Shown one piece after another: positions 27,122 to 64,000 of a DNA stretch of 64,000 nt. The notes beneath the pieces are model-generated. The model ran no database searches and was not told the origin of the DNA. It saw only the letters and a list, made by a program, of their open reading frames with translations. Numbering within the stretch: position 1 is the stretch's first letter; each line of letters begins with the position of its first letter. Origin of the DNA: Escherichia coli (GTDB taxonomy: Bacteria > Pseudomonadota > Gammaproteobacteria > Enterobacterales > Enterobacteriaceae); NCBI RefSeq assembly GCF_013315695.1, contig NZ_CP054353.1; one strand, written 5' to 3'. A program made the translations under genes and the position numbers.

Positions 27122-28444
27122 TTATCCGTTAGTTGTTAAGTTATTGACCTTGTTGGCGGCAATAACAAAAGGTAAATAGATCATTGTCGCCACACCTAAA
27201 CATAAAAAACCCACCAGTAACGCCAGCCAGTTTCCCCCGGTTCCGAGGAAAGCAATTAAAGGTCCGGGCGTAGTCCAGGGCACGGCATAAGCAACCGGTG
27301 GAATAATTTCCATCGAAACAAAGAAGTAACCAATGGCACAGTTAACAATAGGAACCATAATAAACGGCACCATCATGATGGGGTTAAGTACAATAGGAAG
27401 GCCGAACATTATCGGTTCATTGATATTGAAAATACCGGGGATAAATGACATTTTTGCCAGATCACGGTATTCCGCACGCTTAGAAGCGATAAAAATAGCC
27501 AACAATAACCCCAACGTCATACCTGAACCGCCGCAGTTGGCGAATGCATCATTAATAGAAGTCCAGGTAATCGGATATGGCGCGCCCCAGGTAGTGCCGT
27601 GTTGAGCGACCCAGGAGAGATTCTCCAGATTAGCCTCAGAAAAAACAGTTTCTCGAATTGCCGAGGTGGTATTAGGTCCGTGGATCCCCAGCACCCACAG
27701 GAAATTACCCACAGCCCCCAGGATAATTACCGCAAAGATATTCGTTCCCATATGTTTGAGCGGCGTCTGGATTAATGTGTAAATGAGGTCGTTTAATCCT
27801 GCCGGGGATATCAGTGTCAGGCAATAATTAAGTGCGGAAAAGAACACCATGACAAAAAATATTGGCAATAAAACTTTAAATGAACGCGCTACCGCAGGAG
27901 GTACAGCTGCCGGCATCGTGATGGTGATTTTGGGGTTTCGAGCTAAGCGACAAAATATTTCACTGGTGATCAGTGCAACGATAACAGCAACAAATAACCC
28001 CTGCGCGCCGAGATATTTGGTCGTCAGGAATGCTTGCCCATCTATCATCTGATATGGCGTATATACAATAAAAAATGCTCCTATTGCCGTTAATCCGCAT
28101 AAAAGATCATCTTGCTCATAGCTAATCGCCATATTCCTGGCGACCAGGAAAGCAATCATAATTGACATGATATTTACAGAACCATTCATTACCGGAGTAA
28201 AAATAGCTTGTGCTTTTTCAAGGTTGGGGAAAACGCTGTTCAGATGCAGCAGCCCGGCAATAAAGCCGTCGGGCGATAATATGGCAAAGTTAATTAATAT
28301 AATTAATGAGCTTGCCATGATAATTGGAAACGTAAAAACGAATCCATCTCTCACCGCTGCAACATGTTTTTGTGAGTTTAACTTGATAGCAACTGGAACA
28401 AGAAAACGTTCCATTCCACGTTCGAATGAGGCCATTAATCCCAT
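27122..28444 (-). CDS. PTS lactose/cellobiose-family EIIC permease
   Basis: 440-aa polytopic membrane protein resembling ChbC/CelB. Confidence 0.85.
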   Translation of the reverse strand: MGLMASFERGMERFLVPVAIKLNSQKHVAAVRDGFVFTFPIIMASSLIILINFAILSPDGFIAGLLHLNSVFPNLEKAQAIFTPVMNGSVNIMSIMIAFLVARNMAISYEQDDLLCGLTAIGAFFIVYTPYQMIDGQAFLTTKYLGAQGLFVAVIVALITSEIFCRLARNPKITITMPAAVPPAVARSFKVLLPIFFVMVFFSALNYCLTLISPAGLNDLIYTLIQTPLKHMGTNIFAVIILGAVGNFLWVLGIHGPNTTSAIRETVFSEANLENLSWVAQHGTTWGAPYPITWTSINDAFANCGGSGMTLGLLLAIFIASKRAEYRDLAKMSFIPGIFNINEPIMFGLPIVLNPIMMVPFIMVPIVNCAIGYFFVSMEIIPPVAYAVPWTTPGPLIAFLGTGGNWLALLVGFLCLGVATMIYLPFVIAANKVNNLTTNG

Positions 28445-28527
28445 TTTTTATACCTGTTGTTTTGGATATTTATACATCCCAATAAAGCATGTATGCCATA
28501 TCCATTTTATGATGAGTGAAAAGTTAG

Positions 28528-29722
<1,195 letters not shown>

Positions 29723-29756
29723 TTAGTTCAGGTAATAGTTTAATAAAATTAGATTC

Positions 29757-30068
29757 TTACTCTTGCAGTAGTTTCATCGCAAATTCAAGAACTGCCTGTC
29801 CGTTCATGCTGCCATAGTCTTTCATCTCGATAACAGCTACAGGCATTTTCCCCTGTGCAACAGCTTCAATCTCTGGTTTCTGAAAGCGAACTTGCGGGCC
29901 AAGTAAAACAACGTCAACTTCGTTATTTTTAATTTTCCCTTTAGCCTCTGCAATCGCCAATGCGGAAATATTAACTTCAAGTGAAATAGCGTTAGCATGA
30001 TCAATCATACGTTTAACCAGCATACTGGTTGACATGCCCGCAGCGCAAACTAACAATATCTTTTTCAT
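29757..30068 (-). CDS. PTS lactose/cellobiose-family EIIB
   Basis: 103 aa with N-terminal MKKILLVCAAGMSTS phosphocysteine motif (ChbB-like). Confidence 0.85.
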   Translation of the reverse strand: MKKILLVCAAGMSTSMLVKRMIDHANAISLEVNISALAIAEAKGKIKNNEVDVVLLGPQVRFQKPEIEAVAQGKMPVAVIEMKDYGSMNGQAVLEFAMKLLQE

Positions 30069-30266
30069 ATTTTCCCTTACTGGTATATAACAGATTACAT
30101 TGTGTAAATATCATATCCCGCAGTAGCTATACGTCCTGGTACATTGATCACAGTAATACAGCACTAAAGTTGTTCAACATCAGGGTGATAATTAAACGAC
30201 TCGGCCATAGGATAAACCAATCAGGACTCAACTCCTTGTTTTCAATGGCTCTTAAAAGGTGCAAAA

Positions 30267-30965
30267 GTGATTTTTCAAAAGATTGCCCGCTTACTTAAAT
30301 CCGAGATCAATGGCTATTCATGGCATGTTGGTGATTTGTTGCCGTCAGAAGCTGAACTCGCTGTTCGTTATAATGTTTCGCGTAATACCCTGCGTAAGGC
30401 ATTATCCTTGCTGGAAGGCGAAGGAATTATTCATAGAAAGCATGGTTCAGGAACATACATTCAAAAAAAGAATTTTGTTGCACACATTGATCACATGAAC
30501 AGCTTCAGTGAAATTGCGCATAAAAGCGGCAAGGAGGCAGGAAGTCAGATTATGAAATTTGAAGTGCAGGATGCTTCTCCCCCTATTGCGACTGAGCTGA
30601 ATTTAGTGACTGGTGAGCAGGTTTATTACATAAAGAGACTGCGATTCATTGAGGATAATGCAGCACAATTAGAAGAAACGTGGATGTCAGTGGCACGTTT
30701 TCCTGATTTAACCGTAGCACATATGCAAAAATCCAAATTTTCGTATATTGAGAACGAATGCGGGATCAAAATCATTGGCACCTTTGAAACTTTCTCCCCT
30801 ACTTTTCCTACCCCAGAAATCGCCAGTATTTTACGGATCAGCCCACGGGATCCCATACTTAAAATTCAGACCCAGGCTGTGGACAGTAACTCTATTCCGC
30901 TGGATTATTCGTTACTTTACAGCAATATTTTCGAGTTCCAGGTAAAGTACTTTTTCCCGCGATAA
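30267..30965 (+). CDS. GntR-family transcriptional regulator divergent from the PTS operon
   Basis: 232 aa; N-terminal GntR HTH (LPSEAELAVRYNVSRNTLRKAL) plus UTRA-like effector domain; start codon uncertain. Confidence 0.75.
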   Translation: MIFQKIARLLKSEINGYSWHVGDLLPSEAELAVRYNVSRNTLRKALSLLEGEGIIHRKHGSGTYIQKKNFVAHIDHMNSFSEIAHKSGKEAGSQIMKFEVQDASPPIATELNLVTGEQVYYIKRLRFIEDNAAQLEETWMSVARFPDLTVAHMQKSKFSYIENECGIKIIGTFETFSPTFPTPEIASILRISPRDPILKIQTQAVDSNSIPLDYSLLYSNIFEFQVKYFFPR

Positions 30966-35634: not shown

Positions 35635-37680
35635 TTATACGTTCAAGCCACGATGTTGCAGCATCGGCATAATCTGAGGTGCCTTACCGCGCCATTGTCG
35701 ATACAGGCGTTCCAGATCCTCGCTGTTACCTCTGGAAAGGATCGCCTCGCGAAAACGCAGCCCATTTTCACGCGTTAATCCGCCCTGCTCAACAAACCAC
35801 TGATAACCATCATCGGCCAACATTTGCGTCCACAGATAAGCGTAATAACCCGCGGCATATCCGCCACCAAAAATATGGGCGAAATAACTGCTGCGATAGC
35901 GTGGCGGTATAGCAGGAAGATCCATATTTTCCGCCACCAGCGCCCGCAATTCGAAATCATCGACATCCTGCATTGCTTCGTTTTCTTCCAGGCAATGCCA
36001 GCGCATATCGAGAAGTGCGGCGCTAAGCAGTTCGCTCATCTCATACCCTTTATTGAACAGGCTGGCATTACGCATTTTCTGTTGCAGTTCGTCAGGCATT
36101 GCTGCCCCGCTCTGATAATGCCGGGCGTAGCGAGCGAATACCTGCGGATGCGTTGCCCAGTGTTCGTTGATTTGCGACGGAAATTCGACAAAATCACGCG
36201 GCGTGTTGGTGCCGGAAAGCGTGGCATAACGCTGGCGGGCAAAAAGGCCGTGCAGCGTATGACCAAATTCATGGAATAAGGTTATTACATCATCCCAGAG
36301 TAACAACGCAGGCTCCCCAGCAGCGGGTTTCTGATAATTGCAGACGTTATAAATTACCGGGTGCGTTTCATTCAGCGTTGATTGCTCAACAAAATTGCCC
36401 ATCCATGCGCCGCCGCTTTTTGAATCACGGGCGAAGAAATCACCGTAAAATAACGCCAGCCCCACACCATTATGATCAAAAATTTCCCACACACGAACGT
36501 CAGGATGGTAGACAGGAATATCAAAACGTTCGACAAACTTAATACCGAAGAGCTGATTCGCAGTCCAGAATACGCCTTCATTCAACACCGTGTTTAATTC
36601 GAAATAAGGCTTGAGCTGCGCTTCATCGAGATCGAATTTATCACGTCTTACCTGCTCGGCATAAAATGCCCAGTCCCACGGCTGCGCGCTAAACCCGCCC
36701 TGCTGCTTATCGATAACCGCCTGTATGGAGGCTAATTCATCGCTCGCACGTTGACGCGCCGCTGGAACAATTTCCCGCATAAAGTTGAGCGCTGCTTCTG
36801 GCGTTTTTGCCATCTGATCGGCGATTTTCCATGCGGCATAATGAGGAAAACCAAGCAGTTTCGCCTGCTGCGCGCGGATCTCCACCAGACGTTGAATGAT
36901 AGCGCGGGTATCATTGGCATCATTTTTTTCCGCTCGCATCCAGCCCGCAGTAAACAGTTTTTCACGCGTCGCACGATCGCGCATTTCGGCAAGCGCCGGT
37001 TGTTGGGTGGTATTCAGCAGCGGAATCAGCCATTTGTTATCCAGACCTTTCTCGCGAGCCGCCTCTGCCGCCAGCACAATCTCTTGCTCACTCATTCCTG
37101 CCAGCTGCGCGATATCGTTCACAACCAGACCGCCGGATTTATTTGCTGCCAGTAACCGCTGGTTAAACTGGCTGGTCAGGGTCGCAGCTTCTGTATTCAG
37201 TACTTTTAATTTTGCTTTATCAGCTTGCGCAAGTTTGGCTCCGGCAAGGACAAAACGTTGATGAATCACCTCCACCAGGCGGATGGATTCACTATCAAGC
37301 CCCAGGGATTCACGGCGCTGCCAGACAGCATCTACCCGCGCGAATAATTCACCGTTCAGATAGATATCATTAGCCAGTTCCGCCAGTTCAGCGGAAAACT
37401 GTTCATCAAGACGCTGTAATTCATCATTGGTATGCGCCGCAGTCATCGCAAAAAAGACGCTGGTAACGCGGGTAAGTAATTCTCCGCTTTGTTCCAGTGC
37501 CAGAATAGTATTGTTGAAATCAGGCGTTTGCGAGTTAAGCGCGATGGCAGTAATTTCTGCCCGCTTTTGCAGCATTCCCTCATCGAATGCCGGGCGATAG
37601 TGATGATTGGCAATTTGATCAAAATGGGGAGCCAGATACGGCAGTGTGCTTTGCACAAGGAAAGGATTCATTGTTGTCAT
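35635..37680 (-). CDS. dcp: Dipeptidyl carboxypeptidase II (peptidase M3)
   Basis: HEFGH zinc motif; likely start at MTTMNPFLV with RBS ggagaag (ORF track extends 66 nt upstream). Confidence 0.9.
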   Translation of the reverse strand: MTTMNPFLVQSTLPYLAPHFDQIANHHYRPAFDEGMLQKRAEITAIALNSQTPDFNNTILALEQSGELLTRVTSVFFAMTAAHTNDELQRLDEQFSAELAELANDIYLNGELFARVDAVWQRRESLGLDSESIRLVEVIHQRFVLAGAKLAQADKAKLKVLNTEAATLTSQFNQRLLAANKSGGLVVNDIAQLAGMSEQEIVLAAEAAREKGLDNKWLIPLLNTTQQPALAEMRDRATREKLFTAGWMRAEKNDANDTRAIIQRLVEIRAQQAKLLGFPHYAAWKIADQMAKTPEAALNFMREIVPAARQRASDELASIQAVIDKQQGGFSAQPWDWAFYAEQVRRDKFDLDEAQLKPYFELNTVLNEGVFWTANQLFGIKFVERFDIPVYHPDVRVWEIFDHNGVGLALFYGDFFARDSKSGGAWMGNFVEQSTLNETHPVIYNVCNYQKPAAGEPALLLWDDVITLFHEFGHTLHGLFARQRYATLSGTNTPRDFVEFPSQINEHWATHPQVFARYARHYQSGAAMPDELQQKMRNASLFNKGYEMSELLSAALLDMRWHCLEENEAMQDVDDFELRALVAENMDLPAIPPRYRSSYFAHIFGGGYAAGYYAYLWTQMLADDGYQWFVEQGGLTRENGLRFREAILSRGNSEDLERLYRQWRGKAPQIMPMLQHRGLNV

Positions 37681-46944: not shown

Positions 46945-48379
46945 GTTGGAGTCATTACCAAGGAGAAACTACCTTAGCACCAATATTACCGTTAACCACA
47001 ACACACAATTCTCGACTTTCTGTGAATCTAAAGCCGATAATGCTTTTTCTCTCTGGTCGTTCTATAACGCTTTTATATTCTATTTTAGTGCCTTTACCAT
47101 TTGTAATGATTGCGCGTGCTCCCAAAGATGTATACCCCAAATACATATAACTTTCATCTGCAATTTCAGTTGTATCTCCCGTAGTGGAAATATTAAGAAT
47201 ACGTGCGCTACCTTCTTTGTTTGGCGATTCATCCCAATTGGTATTAACTTCTGCTAATGAACTAATAGCGGGATTGCACCAATTTAGAGAAATGGGGACC
47301 GTTACAATATCGCTGGCGCGTGTTACAGGGGATGCGCCTGTTATAATAAACGATGAAGCGCATGCCCCACCTTCAACTTGAGGGGTCGCAATATAAATAT
47401 AATCATCCGCGCCAGTGCCCACTCCTTTTGCCGGGGCATACTGAACCATTCCACCTATCATATTTTCTGTATCAAGTGCCTTAATTGTCGCCTCAAAAAA
47501 GATCCATTTGCTTGCTTCATCTTTAACAGCCCTTGCAGTAATGCGATTAGCGGCACCACCCGTCTTATCAATAGATAAATCTGTCGTATTTAAGTAAGCG
47601 TCACCTAAGAATGTGTAGGTAGAACCATCATAGTTTTCAAATCGTAATCGGCATCTTAAATTTGGAGTGCCACTTTGCACCCTGCATGATATGGTTACAT
47701 ACTTTTCTCCGCCTGTTACATCAAAACCTTTACTGCCGGAAACGGTTACTATGTTAATCGCTGAAATTTGCCCTACCATTTCTGGTTTTAATGTAAATTT
47801 TGCGTACTGGAATCCGAAATCATCTACACCTGATGCACTTAAGATCATATTTGACGACTTGTTCCATTTAGTCGGATTTGTTGAATTGATTAGCAGGTTA
47901 GTTCTTTGCCCCTCAATAAGCAGGCCATCACGTTCAAATCGTGGCTCGTCAATGGCAGCCTCTGTCAGCACACCAGATTTATTAATGTAAGTTGCTTTCG
48001 ATGCGCGTTTAAACTTTACAATCTTGTCGCCAGGCATTGTTATTTCATCGTCGCCAATAACAATTTTTTTATATGATGGCGAAAAGCCCGTAATCATATC
48101 CAGTGAATCATTAAACGGTATCCACACATCGGGCAACGGCTGCAAAACTTGTTTATACGGCTCCGCTGCCTGGCTTGCATACTCTCTGGCTGCGTCTTCA
48201 CTTGCTTTAGCTGCTGTCTGGCTTGCTGCCGATGCTTGCGCCGAGTTCGCCGCCGCAGTCTCGCTCGCCTTTGCGTTGGTTTCACTGGTTTTTGCTGCTT
48301 TTTGACTGTTAGCTGATGCAGTGGCAGAAGCAGCCGCCGCGCTTGCAGAACTGGCTGCGGCACTCTCGCTTTGGGCCGC

Positions 48380-48700
48380 TGCATCCTGACTGCTTTTCGC
48401 CGCAGTTTCACTGGCTTTGGCATTCGTTTCGCTGGTCTTCGCTGCCGTCTGGCTGGACTTTGCGTTAGTTTCACTCGTCTTCGCAGCTTTCTGGCTGTTA
48501 GCCGCAGCAGTTGCTGATCCAGCTGCTGAAGTCGCAGAACCGGCTGCCGCGCTCTCGCTTTGGGCTGCTGCAACCTGGCTGTTTTTTGCCGCAGTTTCAC
48601 TGGCTTTGGCATTCGTTTCGCTGGTTTTCGCTGCCGTCTGGCTGGACTTTGCGTTGGTTTCGCTCGTCTTTGCGGCTGTCTCGCTATTTTTCGCGTTGGT
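48380..48700 (-). repeat. Tandem 189-bp (63-codon) direct repeats inside stf
   Basis: gcagtttcactggctttggcattcgtttcgctgg... recurs at 48402 and 48591 (offset 189 bp); a more diverged copy lies upstream. Confidence 0.8.
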
Positions 48701-49229
48701 TTCTGATTTTTTGGCTGCTGTCGCGGAGTTTGCCGATGCAGTCTTTGAGGTCGCTGCCGCCTGTGCACTATTAGCTGCATTCGTTTCTGAGGTTTTCGCC
48801 GCGTTCTTCGATGATGCCGCTGCAGTTTCGGATTTCTTTGCCGCCGCTGCGCTCTGAGAGGCGGCTTCAGCGTTGCGTGCCGCTTCTTCCACCATTTCCT
48901 CAAAACGACGCAATGCCTCCGGCATGACATCATCTTCCGTCATGGCACCGAGAAAATCATTCAGCGTACCTGGTCTGGAACCTTCATAGACGGTAATGGT
49001 TCCGGCATGTGAAGGCGGAAAACCTTCAACCAGCAGGGTGACGCTGTACTGGCCATACTCAACATCCATGCTGTAACGCCCGGCTTCATCCGGATTTTCA
49101 GAGGCCACTGTGTTGACCAGTACCGTGGTGCTGTTACGCTTTGCCTTCAGTTGAATAGTGCAGTTCTGTATTGGTTTTCCCGCACCATCTTTCAGCACAC
49201 CTGAGATTTTTACTGCTGCCATATCCACT

Positions 49230-49953: not shown

Positions 49954-50793
49954 TCAGCTGATACTGATGCCTGCGGTGGCTTTCTTCATCACCACAACCA
50001 GCAGATCGCTGATACTTGCTGTGGGATACCAGTCATTTACCAGCCATGCTGACACCGAAAACTCCAGCGTCATGTGACCGTGACCGGCAGGCATATCAAT
50101 AACGCCACTGTAAATCAGCGTATTATCCAGCGCGGTACGGTTATAAATTTCAGCACCGTTTTTCCGCACTATCAGACGGCATGAGGAGTAAATATCAGTA
50201 TGCTCTCTCTCATGTTTAGCGCCGCTGAATGCCACCGCCGGAATAACAATCTGCCGGTCAAACGGCTGATCGTCATAAACCCTGACGGTAATGGTCCCTG
50301 ATGGCCACCGTTCCGGTGCACGGGAGTCCCGGGGGAAAGCTTTGCCCACTGTTTTAACGAGATCGCCTTCAATCTGGTTCGCGGACAGTTTTCCCAGAAC
50401 CCGACAGTTCTCGTTAATCGTGACGTTGTTGAGCGTCCCGGAGTTCGCATTCACGTTACCACTGATATCCGCATTTTTAGCAGTCAGCTTTCCGTCCGGT
50501 GTCAGGGAAAATGCCGGTGGATTTCCACCACTGGTAATGGTGGGGGCCGTCAGGCGCTTCAGGAACACGTCGTTCATGAATATCTGGTTGCCCTGCGCCA
50601 CAAACATCGGCGTTTCATTCCCGTTTGCCGGGTCAATAAACGCGATACGATTGGCGGCAACCAGAAACTGACTCAGTTTGCCTTCCTCTGTATCCTCCAT
50701 GCTGAGGCCAATACCCGCGACATAATGTTTGCCGTCTTTGGTCTGCTCAATTTTGACAGCCCACATGGCATTCCATTTATCGTTGGCATCCTT
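49954..50793 (-). pseudogene. J: C-terminal 280 codons of tail tip protein J, N-terminal part deleted
   Basis: Translation ends like lambda J (...[36 protein letters not shown]); upstream boundary is the IS3-family terminus at 50794; no ATG start. Confidence 0.85.
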
Positions 50794-50801
50794 TGTAGTG
50801 G

Positions 50802-54127
<3,326 letters not shown>

Positions 54128-54142
54128 CGCTGACTCTCCGGA

Positions 54143-54883
54143 TTAACTGGCGGTGACGGTGATTTCTGCAACCGCAGCAAACTCACCATTACCGGATACA
54201 ACCGGAATGTTGACCTTGCCTGCAGCAACGCCGTTCACGGTGATGGTCATACCACTGACCGACACGGTGGCTTTTGTTTTATCCGCTGACACCGCACGGA
54301 AGCTCTTGTCGGTTGCGCCTTCCGGCTGGAAGGCCACGGTCAGCGTGGTGCTCTGCCCTTTCACTACGGAAGCACTGGCTGGCGTTACCGTCATGCCGGT
54401 GGCCGCTGTTACCGTGCTGCGATCTTCTGCCATCGACGGGCGTCCCACATTGGTGACCTTCACCGTGCGGGTGATCACTTCCTTCGCCGTCACCGCTTTA
54501 CCGATACTGCTGACCCAGCCACGGAACACATCGACCGTGCCGTTCGGGAAGCGGATTTTATAGGCACGGGTATCACCTTCATTAAACCACGCCAGCAGCG
54601 CCTGCTGCCCCTGCTCTCCGGGCATCCACGCCAGCGTGAAGCTGGTATCTCCGGCTGATTTCTGCCCCTGCCCGGTCGCAGTCCAGTCCGCATCCTCATC
54701 ATCGAGATAACTGTCGTCATAGGACTCAGCGGTCAGTTCGCCGGGCGTCAGGTCTTTAACTTTTGCCAGACGCGACCAGTCAACGTCTGAAAGCGGGTTC
54801 GCATAAGGGTCACCGCTCCCCTTATAAACCCACAGGGTGGTCCCGGCACCTTTCACCGGCATTACAGGATTTGGTACAGGCAT
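54143..54883 (-). CDS. V: Major tail protein gpV
   Basis: [45 protein letters not shown]... recognised as lambda V; C-terminal Ig-like domain. Confidence 0.9.
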
Positions 54884-54890
54884 AGCGTCC

Positions 54891-55286
54891 TCACATTTCA
54901 TAGGTAATGACATAAGTCAGATCGGCTGAACTCCACAGGCCCGCATCATCGTCGCGCCGGTAGTCATAGCCACTGGCCACCATACTGGTGATCAAATCTG
55001 ACAGTGCCGGGATATCGCTCATCACCGGATAAATCCGGGACTCCATCCACGAATCCAGCTCTGAATCCGGCACCTGAGCAGGCAGGAAAACTTCAATATG
55101 CAGCTCCGCCTGCCAGGTATCGCTGTCCAGCTCTTCGCCCGTGTATTCAGCGCCGGTGAGATAAACGGCAATTGCCGGAAAATCTTCCTCATCAAAAACA
55201 GCGGGGCGACCATCAAAAAGCGTCGCCCCGGTGTCATGCTTCTCCAGTGCATCCAGTACGGCTGCACGGAGTTCAGTATGTTTCAT
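54891..55286 (-). CDS. U: Tail terminator gpU
   Basis: 131 aa, [43 protein letters not shown]... recognised as lambda U. Confidence 0.9.
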
Positions 55287-55861
55287 CGCTTTATTACCAT
55301 TCTCAGTTGATGCTGCAGCGCATAGCCCAGCTCTTTCGGAAGACGCTCACGCCGTATCCGTTCAATATTCTGTTTAAACGCCGTGGTCAGTGGCACCGCC
55401 ATCGGGATTTTCACCACATCAATGGGGTAACGGTTTTTCCCGGCCACACGCTGCATGACATGCCACCGGCCATTTTTCAGTTGCTGAATAAACGCGCCGG
55501 GAATACGACGGTTTCCCACCACAAGCACGCTGCCGCCACCTTTCAGGGATGAACGCTGCCCCTTTTTACGACGCCTGCGTCGGGACAGGACAACCCGCGC
55601 ATTACCCAGCTTGATTACGGGCAAATCCCCCCGGTTAACCTTGATTCTGGCCTGCGGATTTTTAACCGTGGCCCTTTTCAGCCTGGCCCTTTCCTTTACC
55701 AGTTTCCGGCGTACCTTTGTCTCACGGGCAACCTGTGACGCCGACTGCGATATCGCGGATGAAGCAACGCGGTTAATGGCCATTGCGGCGGCACCAGGCA
55801 CCGCCGTTTTGCTGATACGGCTGAGGTTTTCAACGGCCTGCTCAAGACCCTGTATGGCCAT
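55283..55861 (-). CDS. Z: Tail completion protein gpZ
   Basis: MAIQGLEQAVENLSRISKTAVPGAAAMAINRVASS... recognised as lambda Z; start taken as the ATG at 55861 in the second copy of a 43-bp duplication. Confidence 0.85.
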   Translation of the reverse strand: MAIQGLEQAVENLSRISKTAVPGAAAMAINRVASSAISQSASQVARETKVRRKLVKERARLKRATVKNPQARIKVNRGDLPVIKLGNARVVLSRRRRRKKGQRSSLKGGGSVLVVGNRRIPGAFIQQLKNGRWHVMQRVAGKNRYPIDVVKIPMAVPLTTAFKQNIERIRRERLPKELGYALQHQLRMVIKR

Positions 55862-55914
55862 ACATCCCCCTTTCAACGGCCTGCTCAAGACCTTTTATGG
55901 CCATACATCCCCCT
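55829..55914 (-). repeat. 43-bp tandem duplication spanning the gpZ RBS and start codon
   Basis: 55829-55871 and 55872-55914 match at 41 of 43 positions; each copy carries aggggg-ATG-tATGGCCATA. Confidence 0.85.
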
Positions 55915-55915
55915 T

Positions 55916-56269
55916 TCAGCGGCGACGGTTAACGGCAGGCGGAACGCCACGCCCAAGCCAGAGATGACAGCTTCCGCCATCATCCGGCGATACCCGGTCT
56001 ATCCAGAAGTTTTCCTCACCGATGGTCAGCGTGTCTCCACGCCGCAGCTGCCGCACCTCATCAGTCCGGACAAACAGGGACGGGCTGGAGCCTTCAACGC
56101 GCACGCCCTGTCCGGCATAGCTGATATTTTCAGGGTCATCAAAAACACCACGTATTACTGCGCCGGACTGCTCACCGGATGTCATGGTGGCTGACGTTCC
56201 CATGTACCCGCGTATCGTTTCATCGGCGCGGGCAATGGCAGCATCGAACAGGTTATCGAAATCAGCCAC
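55916..56269 (-). CDS. FII: Head-tail joining protein gpFII
   Basis: 117 aa, MADFDNLFDAAIARADETIRGYMGTSATMTSGEQSG... recognised as lambda FII. Confidence 0.9.
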   Translation of the reverse strand: MADFDNLFDAAIARADETIRGYMGTSATMTSGEQSGAVIRGVFDDPENISYAGQGVRVEGSSPSLFVRTDEVRQLRRGDTLTIGEENFWIDRVSPDDGGSCHLWLGRGVPPAVNRRR

Positions 56270-56280
56270 AGCGCCTCCCG

Positions 56281-56676
56281 TTATTGCATTCTGGCCAGGC
56301 CACGTTCTGTCATTTCAGCTGCCACACCGGCAGAGACACGGAACGCCGTTCCCGGCAGCACAAATGCCACAGCCTCATCCCGCGTGGCGTGAAGTGCATC
56401 AGTATGCAGCGTCACCAGTGCCACAACCGTGACCAGATCAGCCGTATCAGTCACGGTATCCGGCTGCGCTGATACAACCTCATTTTCATGTCCGGTCAGC
56501 GCATTTTCCGGGCTGACAGATGTGTCCTGACCGGCAGCGTCATCCGTGTCATCAAGCTCCTCTTCCAGCTCTGCCACACGGAGCACCAGTTCTTCTTTCG
56601 TCCCCGTCAGGCTGACATCACGGTTCAGTTGCTCACCCAGCACCTGAAGACGGGCAATCAGTTCATCTTTCGTCAT
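56281..56676 (-). CDS. FI: DNA-packaging protein gpFI
   Basis: MTKDELIARLQVLGEQLNRDVSLTGTKEEL... recognised as lambda FI; ORF track extends further upstream. Confidence 0.85.
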   Translation of the reverse strand: MTKDELIARLQVLGEQLNRDVSLTGTKEELVLRVAELEEELDDTDDAAGQDTSVSPENALTGHENEVVSAQPDTVTDTADLVTVVALVTLHTDALHATRDEAVAFVLPGTAFRVSAGVAAEMTERGLARMQ

Positions 56677-56717
56677 GGACTCCTCCACAAAGAGAAAATG
56701 GCCCCGAAGGGCCATGA

Positions 56718-57743
56718 TTACGCCAGTTGTACGGACACGAACGCATCAGGGTCAGCCAGCAGCATCAGCGGTGCTGACTGAATCATGGTGAACTCACGCG
56801 CCGGATCGCCGGTGGTCACCCAGTTTTTCGGGTAGCGGGCAGAAGCGTTAATACCTTCGCGCTGTGCGTCCGCATCCTGAATGCAGCCATAGGTGCGCAG
56901 ACCGCGTGCCTGAGTGTTCCCCAGCACCATCGTGTTGTCCGGAAGGAAGTTCTTTTTGACGTCGTTTTCCACGTACTGTCCGGAATACACGACGATCGCC
57001 GTATCGCCATACATCCCCTTATAGGACACCGCTTCGCCCAGGTCTTTTACCGCTGTCTCCAGCTCGGAATGAGAGCCGCGACGGGTATCCAGCTTCTCCC
57101 TGACGGCTTTGAAGGAACGGAACAGCGCCCAGCCTTTCGGATCAAACACGATGATATTCACCACGCCGCTGGCGTTCAGCGCATAGGCTTCGATATCGTC
57201 GGTCGGGTCATACGTGGACTTGTCACGCTTGCTCCACTCCGTACCACCGGACTGTGTGATGTTGTTCGCCGCACTGCGGCCCATATCCACTTCAACCGGA
57301 TCGAAGGCTTCACCGGTCATGGTGTATTTGCCCTTAAGCACGGCAGAAACTGCCTGCATCTCTTCGACCTGAGCAATGGCCAGCTCTTCGTCTCGCATGT
57401 TCTGCATGATGATGCGACGGCGGCGGTAAGCCGGGTCCGCCAGATTCTGCGGATCTTCATCCGGCAGGCGACGCAGGGTCATCTGCGGATTCACCTCATG
57501 CTTCGGCTTGACATATCCCGGTGTAAATTCAGAGGTGGAGCCGCCACGGGAGCGGATAACCTCACCGGAAACAATCGGCGAAACGTACAGCGCCATGTTT
57601 ACCAGTCCCGGAATTTGTGAGAGATAGACTTTCTCCGTGGTGAAGGGATAGCTCTCACGGAAAAAGAGACGCAGAAACAGCGGATCAAACTTAAATTTCT
57701 GCTCATTTGCCGCCAGCAGCTGGGCGGTTGTGTACATCGACAT
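56718..57743 (-). CDS. E: Major capsid protein gpE
   Basis: MSMYTTAQLLAANEQKFKFDPLFLRLFFRESYPFTTEKVYLSQIPGLVNMALYVSP... recognised as lambda E. Confidence 0.95.
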   Translation of the reverse strand: MSMYTTAQLLAANEQKFKFDPLFLRLFFRESYPFTTEKVYLSQIPGLVNMALYVSPIVSGEVIRSRGGSTSEFTPGYVKPKHEVNPQMTLRRLPDEDPQNLADPAYRRRRIIMQNMRDEELAIAQVEEMQAVSAVLKGKYTMTGEAFDPVEVDMGRSAANNITQSGGTEWSKRDKSTYDPTDDIEAYALNASGVVNIIVFDPKGWALFRSFKAVREKLDTRRGSHSELETAVKDLGEAVSYKGMYGDTAIVVYSGQYVENDVKKNFLPDNTMVLGNTQARGLRTYGCIQDADAQREGINASARYPKNWVTTGDPAREFTMIQSAPLMLLADPDAFVSVQLA

Positions 57744-57798
57744 AAAAAAATCCCGTAAAAAAAGCCGCACAGGCGGCCTTTAGTGATGAAGGGTAAAG

Positions 57799-58131
57799 TT
57801 AAACGATGCTGATTGCCGTTCCGGCAAACGCGGTCCGTTTTTTCGTCTCGTCGCTGGCAGCCTCCGGCCAGAGCACATCCTCATAACGGAACGTGCCGGA
57901 CTTGTAGAACGTCAGCGTGGTGCTGGTCTGGTCAGCTGCAACAGCCAGAATGCCAACGGCAGCACCGTCGGTGGTGCCATCCCACGCAACCAGCTTACGG
58001 GTGGCGGTGTCAAGCATCAGCGGAGTCATTGCAGGCGCTTTCGCACTCAATCCGCCGGGCGCGGTTGCGGTATGAGCCGGGTCACTGTTGCCCAGCGGCT
58101 GGTAATGGGTAAAGGTTTCTTTGCTCGTCAT
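57799..58131 (-). CDS. D: Capsid decoration protein gpD
   Basis: [41 protein letters not shown]... recognised as lambda D. Confidence 0.95.
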
Positions 58132-58140
58132 AAACATCCC

Positions 58141-59440
58141 TTACACTGGTGTGTTCAGCAAATCGTTAACGGCATCAGATGCCGGGTTACCTGCAGCCAG
58201 TGGTGCCGGTGCACCCTGCATCAGACGATCCAGCGCAGTGTCACTGCGCGCCTGTGCACTCTGTGGTGCTGCGGCCAGAATGCGGCGGGCCGTTTCCACG
58301 GTCATTCCGGGGGTTTCTGCCAGCACGCGCGCCTGTTCTTCGCGTCCGTGAGCCTCCTCACAGTTGAGGATCCCCATAATGCGGCTGTTTTCTGCCGCAA
58401 CCGCTGCGGTGATCTGCGTGTTCACGTCCGGCTGCGCCGCGCTGGCGTTTTCGCCCTCCGTCGCTTGCACCACGTCAGTAACGTCAGCCTGCGAAGCGGT
58501 GGCTGAAACAGTTGTTGATTGAGTCTCTTTGGTCATTCGCCCTCCTGAGAGACGGGATTTACGTGCATCCAGTGCATCACGCATGACGGTGATCGCATCG
58601 GTGCTGTTAACAAGTTCATCAGCCAGTCCGGCATCAATGGCCTCCTGACCGCTGTACACTGCAGCCTCGGTATCCAGCACAGCCTGCACGGACAGGCCGG
58701 TATATGCCGACACCTTCTGCGCAAACATCCGGCGGGTTGCATCCATCCGGGACTGCAGTGTCTCCCGGACGTCATCCGGAAGATGGCTGTAGGGGTTGCC
58801 ATCCACCTTATGGCTGCCGCTGTAAATCAGCGTGATTTCCACGCCCTGTTTCTCCAGCGCAGCACCGTAATTACTGTGAGCCATCATGACGCCGATGGAG
58901 CCTGTCCGGGCGGTCTGCGTGACCAGACGCCGGGAGGCGGCACTGGCAAGCAGCTGACCTGCGCTGCAGTTCATGTCATTGGCCAGCGCCCATACCGGCT
59001 TTATGTCACGCACACGGGCGATGATGTCAGCGCAGTCAAATGCCCCTGCCACCATCCCGCCTGGCGTATCCATATCGAGCAGAATGCCGTCCACCATCGG
59101 GTCGCTGGCAGCCTGTTGCAGACGGGCGATAATGCCGTTGTAACCGGTCATCCCCGAATACGGCTGCAGCGCCCGCGTCCGGCTGACCAGCGTGCCGGAC
59201 ACCGGCAGCACGGCGATGCCGTTCATGACCTGATAACTGCGGGCCTGCCGTGGTCCGTCATCATCAACGGATAACGCCAGCGCCGCGGGTGCCTCTCCGG
59301 CAGTCAGGCTGTCGCCGGATACCGCATCCGTCAGGCGGCTGATCCCAAGCTGGCCTGCAAGCGCACAAAAGAAAACCCGCGCATAGGCGGGTTCAAGCAT
59401 CAGCGGCTCATTAAAGGCCATACTGGTAATATGCGGGAGA

Positions 59441-59460
<20 letters not shown>
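58141..59460 (-). CDS. C: Capsid maturation protease gpC (scaffold Nu3 nested in frame at its 3' end)
   Basis: S49-family ClpP-like domain; start set at the GTG aligned with lambda C (VTAELRNLPHI), overlapping the B stop by 20 nt. Confidence 0.85.
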
Positions 59461-63141
<3,681 letters not shown>

Positions 63142-63167
<26 letters not shown>

Positions 63168-63687
63168 TCAGCAACCCCGGTATCAGTTCATCCAGCGCGG
63201 CTGCTTTGTTCATGGCTTTGATGATATCCCGTTTCAGGAAATCAACATGTCGGTTTTCCAGTTCCGGAAAACGCCGCTGCACCGACAGGGGGATCCCGTC
63301 GAGAATACTGGCAATTTCACCTGCGATCCGCGACAACACGAAAGTACAGAATGCGGTTTCCACCACTTCAGCGGAGTCTCTGGCATTCTTCAGTTCCTGT
63401 GCGTCGGCCTGCGCACGCGTAAGTCGGTGGCGTTCGTACTCAATAGTCCCTGGCTGGAGATCTGCCTCGCTGGCCTGCCGCAGTTCTTCAACCTCCCGGC
63501 GCAGCTTTTCGTTCTCAATTTCAGCATCCCTTTCGGCATACCATTTTATGACGGCGGCAGAGTCATAAAGCACCTCATTACCCTTGCCACCGCCTCGCAG
63601 AACGGGCATTCCCTGTTCCTGCCAGTTCTGAATGGTACGGATACTCGCACCGAAAATGTCAGCCAGCTGCTTTTTGTTGACTTCCAT
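63142..63687 (-). CDS. Nu1: Terminase small subunit gpNu1
   Basis: 181 aa, MEVNKKQLADIFGASIRTIQNWQEQGMPVLRGGGKGNEVLYDSAAVIKWYAERD... recognised as lambda Nu1. Confidence 0.95.
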
Positions 63688-63877
63688 TGCTCATTCCACG
63701 GACAAAAACAGAGAAAGGAAACGACAGAGGCCAAAAAGCTCGCTTTCAGCACCTGTCGTTTCCTTTCTTTTCAGGGGGTATTTTAAATAAAAACATTAAG
63801 TTACGACGAAGAAGAACGGAAACGCCTTAAACCGGAAAATTTTCATAAATAGCGAAAACCCGCGAGGTCGCCGCCCC
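63688..63877 (-). other. cos: cos site: cosB between Nu1 and cosN, cosN 12-nt cohesive-end sequence at 63866-63877
   Basis: Minus strand reads GGGCGGCGACCTCGCGGGTTTTCGCTATTTATGAAAATTTTCCGGTTTAAGGCG (lambda left end); the preceding ...CGATCCGACAGGTTACG matches the lambda right end. Confidence 0.9.
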
Positions 63878-64000
63878 GTAACCTGTCGGATCGCCGGAAA
63901 GGACCCGAAAAATGATAATAATTATCATCTACATGTCACAACGTGCATCTACGCCATCAAACCACGTCAAATAATCAATTATGACGCAGGTATCGTATTA

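Follow-up and report, generated by a model that had tools for sequence, protein, structure and literature searches.

A rare tandem duplication of the gene Z start region in lambda-type prophages of Escherichia coli

The ribosome-binding site and start codon of the tail completion gene Z are present twice, head to tail, in a lambda-type prophage of Escherichia coli. The duplication is real, heritable and rare. It is an ordinary structural polymorphism, and the kind of event is well known. The variant is apparently tolerated and compatible with infectious phage; it is probably near-neutral, with Z still made from the second start. The account as a whole, that of a heritable direct-repeat duplication which joins two alleles, has one origin, is tolerated and is near-neutral, is considered likely. 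A literature search found no earlier description of a duplicated Z start. Coordinates refer to the window, which is the whole 64,000-nt stretch of DNA analysed; the genes and repeat units described are on its minus strand.

Structure and distribution of the duplicated start region

Two 43-nt copies, 55828-55870 and 55871-55913, are identical at 41 of 43 positions (95%) in a repeat search of the window. The spacer is zero, the start-to-start distance of the copies (43) being equal to the unit length. TRF run on the array gives a period of 43, 2.2 copies, 94% matches, 0% indels and a score of 171. Both searches agree with the original prediction, which had described a tandem duplication of the ribosome-binding site and start of Z. 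The chance expectation for such a tandem pair in 64 kb of random sequence is about 7e-18.

The duplicated unit contains the whole Z Shine-Dalgarno (SD) sequence, the ATG and the first 10-11 codons. Copy 1 (55871..55913, minus strand) has the SD GGGGGA at 55913-55908, the ATG at 55904-55902, codons 2-11, and Lys4 AAA at 55895-55893. Copy 2 (55828..55870, minus strand) has the SD GGGGGA at 55870-55865, the ATG at 55861-55859, codons 2-11, and Gln4 CAG at 55852-55850. The order on the minus strand is therefore FII stop TGA (55918-55916), first SD, ATG 55904, second SD, ATG 55861. The 3' end of FII reads AAC CGT CGC CGC TGA. Copy 1, with the two nucleotides before it, reads AA GGGGGA TGT ATG GCC ATA AAA GGT CTT GAG CAG GCC GTT GAA A; copy 2 follows directly as GGGGGA TGT ATG GCC ATA CAG GGT CTT GAG CAG GCC GTT GAA AAC CTC and continues into Z.

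Z belongs to a lambda-type late operon, in which it is flanked by FII (head closure) on one side and U (tail terminator) on the other. FII, a head-tail joining or head closure protein of 117 aa (55916..56269, minus strand), matches NCBIfam tail_join_FII (3e-19) and PHROG 82 head closure Hc1 (3.8e-53) and is colinear with lambda Fii. U, a tail terminator of 131 aa (54891..55286, minus strand), matches PHROG 37 tail terminator (3.1e-62) and overlaps the Z stop, as in lambda. Z itself (55283..55861, minus strand) is intact, starts at the copy-2 ATG and encodes a tail completion protein of 192 aa, WP_001520551.1. Its length from ATG 55861 is that of lambda Z (192 aa), and 14 of 579 nt differ from lambda Z. 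The protein matches PHROG 27 'tail completion or Neck1' over residues 1-192 (7.4e-69), and Pfam PF06763 Minor_tail_Z is recorded for a protein identical to it. A profile search of NCBIfam gave no model matching Z or U, which PHROGs and Pfam do match. That the second ATG is the one in the Z frame, as had been proposed, is confirmed by the 192-aa ORF running to 55283 and by RefSeq and GenBank annotation, which starts Z at the second ATG in all carrier records fetched.

The upstream ATG at 55904 occupies the ancestral position claimed for it, 11 nt after the FII stop and leading to a Lys4 codon as in lambda; the gap from the FII stop to the Z start is 54 nt. It is out of the Z frame because 43 = 3 × 14 + 1. 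It opens a 20-codon ORF, MAIKGLEQAVERGMYGHTGS (55842..55904, minus strand), with the stop TGA at 55844-55842, as the ORF listing confirms. This ORF crosses the SD and ATG of copy 2 and ends 14 nt after the Z ATG, so that the second ATG does lie within it (55861 inside 55842..55904). Its product had zero family matches in a profile search of PHROGs. The Z start is self-sufficient, because copy 2 has a complete native SD (GGGGGA) and native spacing. Copy 1 should load ribosomes too, to judge from its ancestral position 11 nt past the FII stop and its identical SD. A TTG-start ORF of 201 aa (55283..55888) was rejected as a Z start; it results from prolonging the Z frame mechanically into copy 1 and is without an SD.

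Some features go beyond the original prediction: the mismatches are a Lys4/Gln4 allelic pair, direct repeats flank the unit, and the prophage lacks H through J.

Carriers were sought with a 49-nt junction probe, built so that single-copy genomes give no 28-nt seed. The probe matches 6 of 5,426 complete E. coli genomes, namely ST3 (Italy), CEA212U (France), KK19-02 (Germany), AF3 (UK) and MSB1_4I (Australia); KK19-02 counts twice among the six matches, as two records of one genome. The phage records PhiR49_1 and PhiR49_1_star are matched as well. A second probe place in PhiR49_1 and MSB1_4I, considered as a triplication, is a 28-nt shifted-register match within the same duplication. When the exact Z protein was looked up, four further NCBI assemblies (L017-L020) proved to have 54 nt between FII and Z, and others the normal 11 nt. 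The 86 bp recur unchanged, both differences between the copies included, in ten independent assemblies or records other than the window, among them an NCTC genome and a purified phage. For carrier searches, the 40-mer GGTCTTGAGCAGGCCGTTGAAAGGGGGATGTATGGCCATA could serve as search sequence.

With a 231-nt query, lambda and most of its relatives match as two pieces spanning 188 bp, which corresponds to one copy, and few records match as a single 231-bp piece. Alignment of lambda and lambdoid Z upstream regions shows the single-copy region in lambda and in about 3,480 complete E. coli genomes. The duplication occurs in about 0.2% of the complete genomes having the region and is absent from about 99.8%; it is not universal in lambda-like phages, a possibility raised by the original prediction. 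These prevalence figures cover sequenced E. coli isolates. Exact-junction scans of IMG/VR viral contigs and of JGI metagenome contigs did not find the duplication junction.

Prophage context and translation of Z

By blastn, the window and PhiR49_1 are colinear over the stretch from cos/Nu1 to G-T (64000..53273) at 97.7% identity. Colinearity breaks eight codons into the tape-measure gene H. There, an IS3-family element interrupted by IS30 (50792..53273; IS30 3e-82, IS3 2.1e-78) takes the place of H, after about eight codons, and of all that follows as far as about 75% of J. What is left of J is its last ~283 residues; the genes H, M, L, K and I are gone, as is the greater part of J. The T/H-IS junction is common to AF3 and MSB1_4I. 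From its gene content, the prophage of the window is defective and would be unable to build tails. With H through J lost, the level of Z would be without consequence for virion production in this genome. Discussion of the function of the duplication applies to intact carriers, e.g. PhiR49.1.

Intact carriers are known. The ST3 prophage has complete, uninterrupted head and tail genes. The GenBank record of PhiR49_1 gives ECOR13 as the host, and its head and tail modules are complete. Supplementary file 3 of PMC13190303 lists PhiR49.1 and PhiR49.1* as temperate phages isolated by Brenes and Laub 2025, and both were used there in an efficiency-of-plaquing panel with ECOR13 strains. Lambda particles without gpZ are about 500-fold less infectious (PMC11661146), so a plaquing carrier must make functional Z. 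The homologous tail completion protein of phage 80alpha is a monomer per tail (PMC11661146); little Z may therefore suffice, and a several-fold change of Z could escape notice from viability alone. That PhiR49.1 is viable shows Z to be sufficient; it does not show an unchanged level of Z.

An effect on Z dosage is the first alternative to near-neutrality; it is a sharpened form of the original prediction, by which the duplication should lower or recouple translation of Z. The proximal start would capture ribosomes, including those ending at FII, and gpZ dosage would be changed and under selection; in detail, initiation of Z would depend on translation of the short ORF through helix opening and termination-reinitiation. 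The dosage effect is judged unlikely, and the same low probability is given to the detailed form. SD and spacing are identical in both copies, and the short ORF covers the Z start, SD included, and ends 14 nt after the AUG. Ribosomes that terminate near a start codon can reinitiate there, e.g. at the MS2 lysis gene. The arrangement also persists across at least four recombined backgrounds.

The same reading draws on a predicted RNA helix. A 12-nt inverted repeat, 100% complementary, pairs the first AUG region with the second. Its 5' arm is UGUAUGGCCAUA (55896..55907, minus strand); its 3' arm is UAUGGCCAUACA (55851..55862, minus strand), which covers the Z AUG. The predicted start-to-start helix is present in the MFE structure with pair probabilities of 0.9-0.99. 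It is predicted only for the duplicated form, because the doubled palindrome TATGGCCATA gives the 12-nt perfect inverted repeat, and it is absent from the fold of the lambda region. The Gln4 allele in copy 2 extends it by 2 bp, from 10 to 12 bp.

Against a dosage effect, the predicted opening energies of the Z start (-15 to +12 around the AUG) overlap between the forms. They are 8.4-14.9 kcal/mol in the duplicated form vs 10.9-15.5 kcal/mol in single-copy forms, which are reconstructed with K or Q, and the sign of the difference shifts with the context chosen. Neither a decrease nor an increase of Z initiation is therefore predictable. The single-copy start is predicted to pair with the FII 3' end. 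Fold stability of the whole region is not unusual (z = -0.9 duplicated, -1.1 lambda). The carriers are identical by descent, so that comparing them cannot speak for selection on either the ORF or the helix. Moreover, the variant is rare (about 0.2%), is lost in sister genomes, and is present in a tail-less prophage, where no role is possible.

A stricter form of the same idea is an accidental translational switch, modelled as a 12-bp helix that would lock both AUGs until short-ORF ribosomes derived from FII melt it and reinitiate at Z. This switch is held to be quite improbable. If it existed, gpZ output would be strictly proportional to FII translation, and a new mode of coupling would have been selected in an infectious lambdoid lineage.

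The duplication, probably near-neutral, is a clean, datable example of phage gene-start evolution, in which a ribosome-binding site was copied whole, apparently without harm since the distal copy is self-sufficient. For annotators, it is a reason to start Z at the second ATG in this lineage. It is also a natural construct for the effects of an overlapping upstream ORF and a start-to-start helix on bacterial initiation; isogenic forms with one copy and with two exist, and the culturable PhiR49.1 has the duplication. Knowledge of lambda tail assembly is unchanged by it.

Formation, alleles and spread

Short direct repeats bound the unit. TGAAA ends each 43-nt unit and occurs three times in carriers, at each unit boundary. 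Genomes with one copy, lambda among them, have TGAAA at two places 43 bp from each other, the FII stop and Z codons 11-12. In the window, the left boundary repeat GCCGCTGAAA (55914..55923, minus strand) takes in the FII stop and amounts to part of a third copy; the TRF array reaches 55923. In 10 of the 11 carriers, the boundary repeat is a perfect 10-nt GCCGTTGAAA, present three times, and CGT is the last codon of FII. Among carriers, only the window has C in place of T at 55919, its last FII codon being CGC; back-mutation, or conversion from another prophage, could account for this C. Among single-copy genomes T at 55919 is very rare, being found in one of about 3,500 Lys4 genomes (A36) and in two Gln4 genomes (L021, L024). 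These three could be ancestors or collapse products.

Mispairing or template switch between direct repeats 43 bp apart would give the 43-bp tandem duplication, a mechanism suggested by the direct-repeat signature. The repeats used would be TGAAA, or GCCGTTGAAA in most carriers, one over the FII stop and the other over Z codons 9-12. The distal copy would restore a complete, normally equipped Z, and the proximal copy would become the 20-codon ORF ending 14 nt within Z.

Codon 4 accounts for both differences between the copies: copy 1 has AAA (Lys4), whereas copy 2 has CAG (Gln4). Lambda itself is single-copy with Lys4. At least 30 complete genomes have one copy with Gln4, whose start matches copy 2 at 100% over 67 nt, and the identical 192-aa Z protein is encoded after single-copy and after duplicated starts. 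The two mismatches thus correspond to pre-existing Z alleles, with drift after duplication not required. Since the copies differ by Lys4/Gln4, a single intramolecular slip is insufficient; two lambdoid genomes or a second exchange are needed. A Lys4 genome would supply FII and copy 1, and a Gln4 genome copy 2 and the body of Z, by template switch or unequal exchange. Exchange between Lys4 and Gln4 genomes is the most economical reading, and duplication followed by exchange of a patch is equally allowed. Exchange partners are available, as E. coli genomes have up to five copies of the FII-Z region. On either course, the two copies appear to record an exchange between two Z alleles.

The 86 bp are identical in each of the 11 carriers, with K in the first copy and Q in the second. 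Their flanking 3 kb differ by up to 89 substitutions, in mosaic blocks, and fall into at least four backgrounds: window/AF3; MSB1_4I; PhiR49_1; and ST3/CEA212U/KK19-02. The K-then-Q order common to all 11 carriers in mosaic flanks makes a single origin likely, with later recombination into several mosaic prophage backgrounds. Repeated, independent duplication at the 10-nt direct repeats is very improbable. Slippage would have a natural substrate in direct repeats spaced 43 bp, carriers occur in several flank haplotypes, and the CGT variant that perfects the 10-nt repeat is also in single-copy A36, L021 and L024. However, independent intramolecular events would yield K-K or Q-Q. Mosaic flanks are expected anyway from recombination among lambdoid prophages, which is well known.

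After a single origin, the duplication would have moved into several mosaic prophages and would occasionally have been lost. Only one copy, with Lys4, is present in AF14 and AF10, which share the T/H-IS junction of the window; the K/Q codon, one SNP and a one-base G-run indel are all that separates their Z body from that of the window. The duplication appears to have been lost in the AF14/AF10 lineage by collapse or replacement, a gain there being less likely.

Recoding in the manner of prfB is extremely improbable. Ribosomes from the first ATG would shift +1 near UCU UGA G and make an N-terminally extended Z. The Z frame is indeed +1 relative to the short ORF, the terminal UGA of the ORF overlaps CUU GAG of the Z frame, and an SD-like AGGGGG lies upstream. 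The frameshift was nevertheless rejected on inspection of the site: the P-site UCU cannot re-pair on CUU, failing at the first position, and the SD-like element is too far away. Conservation gives it no support, and Z is already served by a complete start of its own, 43 nt beyond the first.

An assembly or sequencing artefact in the window has next to no probability, for although short tandem duplications can arise as assembly errors, the identical 86 bp recurs in the ten other records, which come from separate sequencing projects, laboratories and countries and include the isolated phage, and the near-identical AF3 (11 differences in about 3,050 aligned bases around the duplication) is duplicated too. 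An assembly error was the other refuting possibility that the original prediction had named.

Comparison with known systems

Leader ORFs with translational coupling are alike in that a short ORF with its own SD extends over the SD and start codon of the gene that follows, ends no more than 14 nt from that downstream AUG, and has a predicted helix that involves this AUG. They are unlike in that the 20-codon ORF is an accidental by-product of duplication in one rare lineage, and Z keeps a full SD. The short ORF shows no conservation beyond identity by descent, the 11 carriers being identical over 86 bp. The likeness to a coupling leader ORF is one of anatomy only.

The prfB frameshift site is CUU UGA C, and an SD-like stimulator precedes its shift codon by about 3 nt. 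The Z start region resembles it in having an in-frame UGA where the +1 frame enters a long ORF, and an SD-like sequence upstream. It differs in that UCU in the P site is not slippery toward +1, and that AGGGGG is 16 nt upstream, not 3 nt.

The lambda FII-Z junction (NC_001416 7965-7977) has the same gene order (E, FI, FII, Z, U, V, G/T), the same SD GGGGGA and spacing, and the same 11-nt gap from the FII stop to the first ATG. Lambda has one copy, whereas here the FII-proximal ATG no longer leads into Z.

Microhomology tandem duplications, products of replication slippage, template switching or unequal exchange at short direct repeats, are alike in being head-to-tail without spacer, with a unit bounded by a 5-10-nt direct repeat; in having this repeat at both sites, one unit apart, in the unduplicated allele; and in having known unduplicated sister genomes, also within the same prophage lineage. 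The Z-start copies are unlike these in differing at two bases, which correspond to two natural Z alleles. The Z-start feature has the tested properties of a microhomology-mediated tandem duplication, and its copies keep two alleles.

Disrupted tail region of the prophage

The lambda-like prophage in the window is defective. The tape-measure gene H (from about 8 codons in) through about 75% of J is replaced by an IS3-family element and IS30, which together occupy window 50792-53273. The IS3-family element retains orfA on the minus strand, starting at about 53201, and a remnant of orfB (50802-51548), and is interrupted by IS30, whose transposase gene lies on the plus strand (51772-52923). The C-terminal ~283 aa (49954-50805) is the only part of J left. 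Downstream of this remnant, a side-tail-fibre-like gene on the minus strand (ORF 46955-49228) hosts a tandem repeat at 48251-48685, with a period of 189 bp, 2.3 copies and 83% matches (TRF score 604). Periodicities of 42 and 21 bp are nested within it. The IS junction is also present in E. coli AF3, MSB1_4I, AF14 and AF10.

Annotated gene disruptions in related genomes

In the single-copy sisters AF14 and AF10, Z is annotated as frameshifted (597-1176 in both L011 and L012) because a G-run has one extra G (CAGGGG versus CAGGG), and IS30 is annotated with an internal stop. Both features may reflect either genuine decay or sequencing errors in homopolymers. For PhiR49_1, a phage that forms plaques, the GenBank record (L010) divides H between two CDSs that overlap, 27991-28290 and 28257-30551, and splits lom (36407-37020) into two CDSs as well. 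True frameshifts, recoding or sequence errors may each account for these split annotations.

Boundary repeat and palindrome of the duplicated Z start

The final codon of FII, the gene upstream of Z, is CGC in the window (position 55919) and CGT in all ten other carriers of the 43-bp duplication, in which it makes the 10-nt repeat at the boundary, GCCGTTGAAA, perfect. Among single-copy genomes the T of CGT is nearly missing, occurring only in A36, L021 and L024. The window's C at 55919 may have arisen by reversion or through conversion from a different prophage. The Z start is contained in a 10-nt palindrome, TATGGCCATA (window 55853-55862 and 55896-55905), so its duplication automatically yields a predicted start-to-start helix. 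The Gln4 allele lengthens the palindrome to 14 nt, TGTATGGCCATACA. The 10-nt form is also present in lambda.
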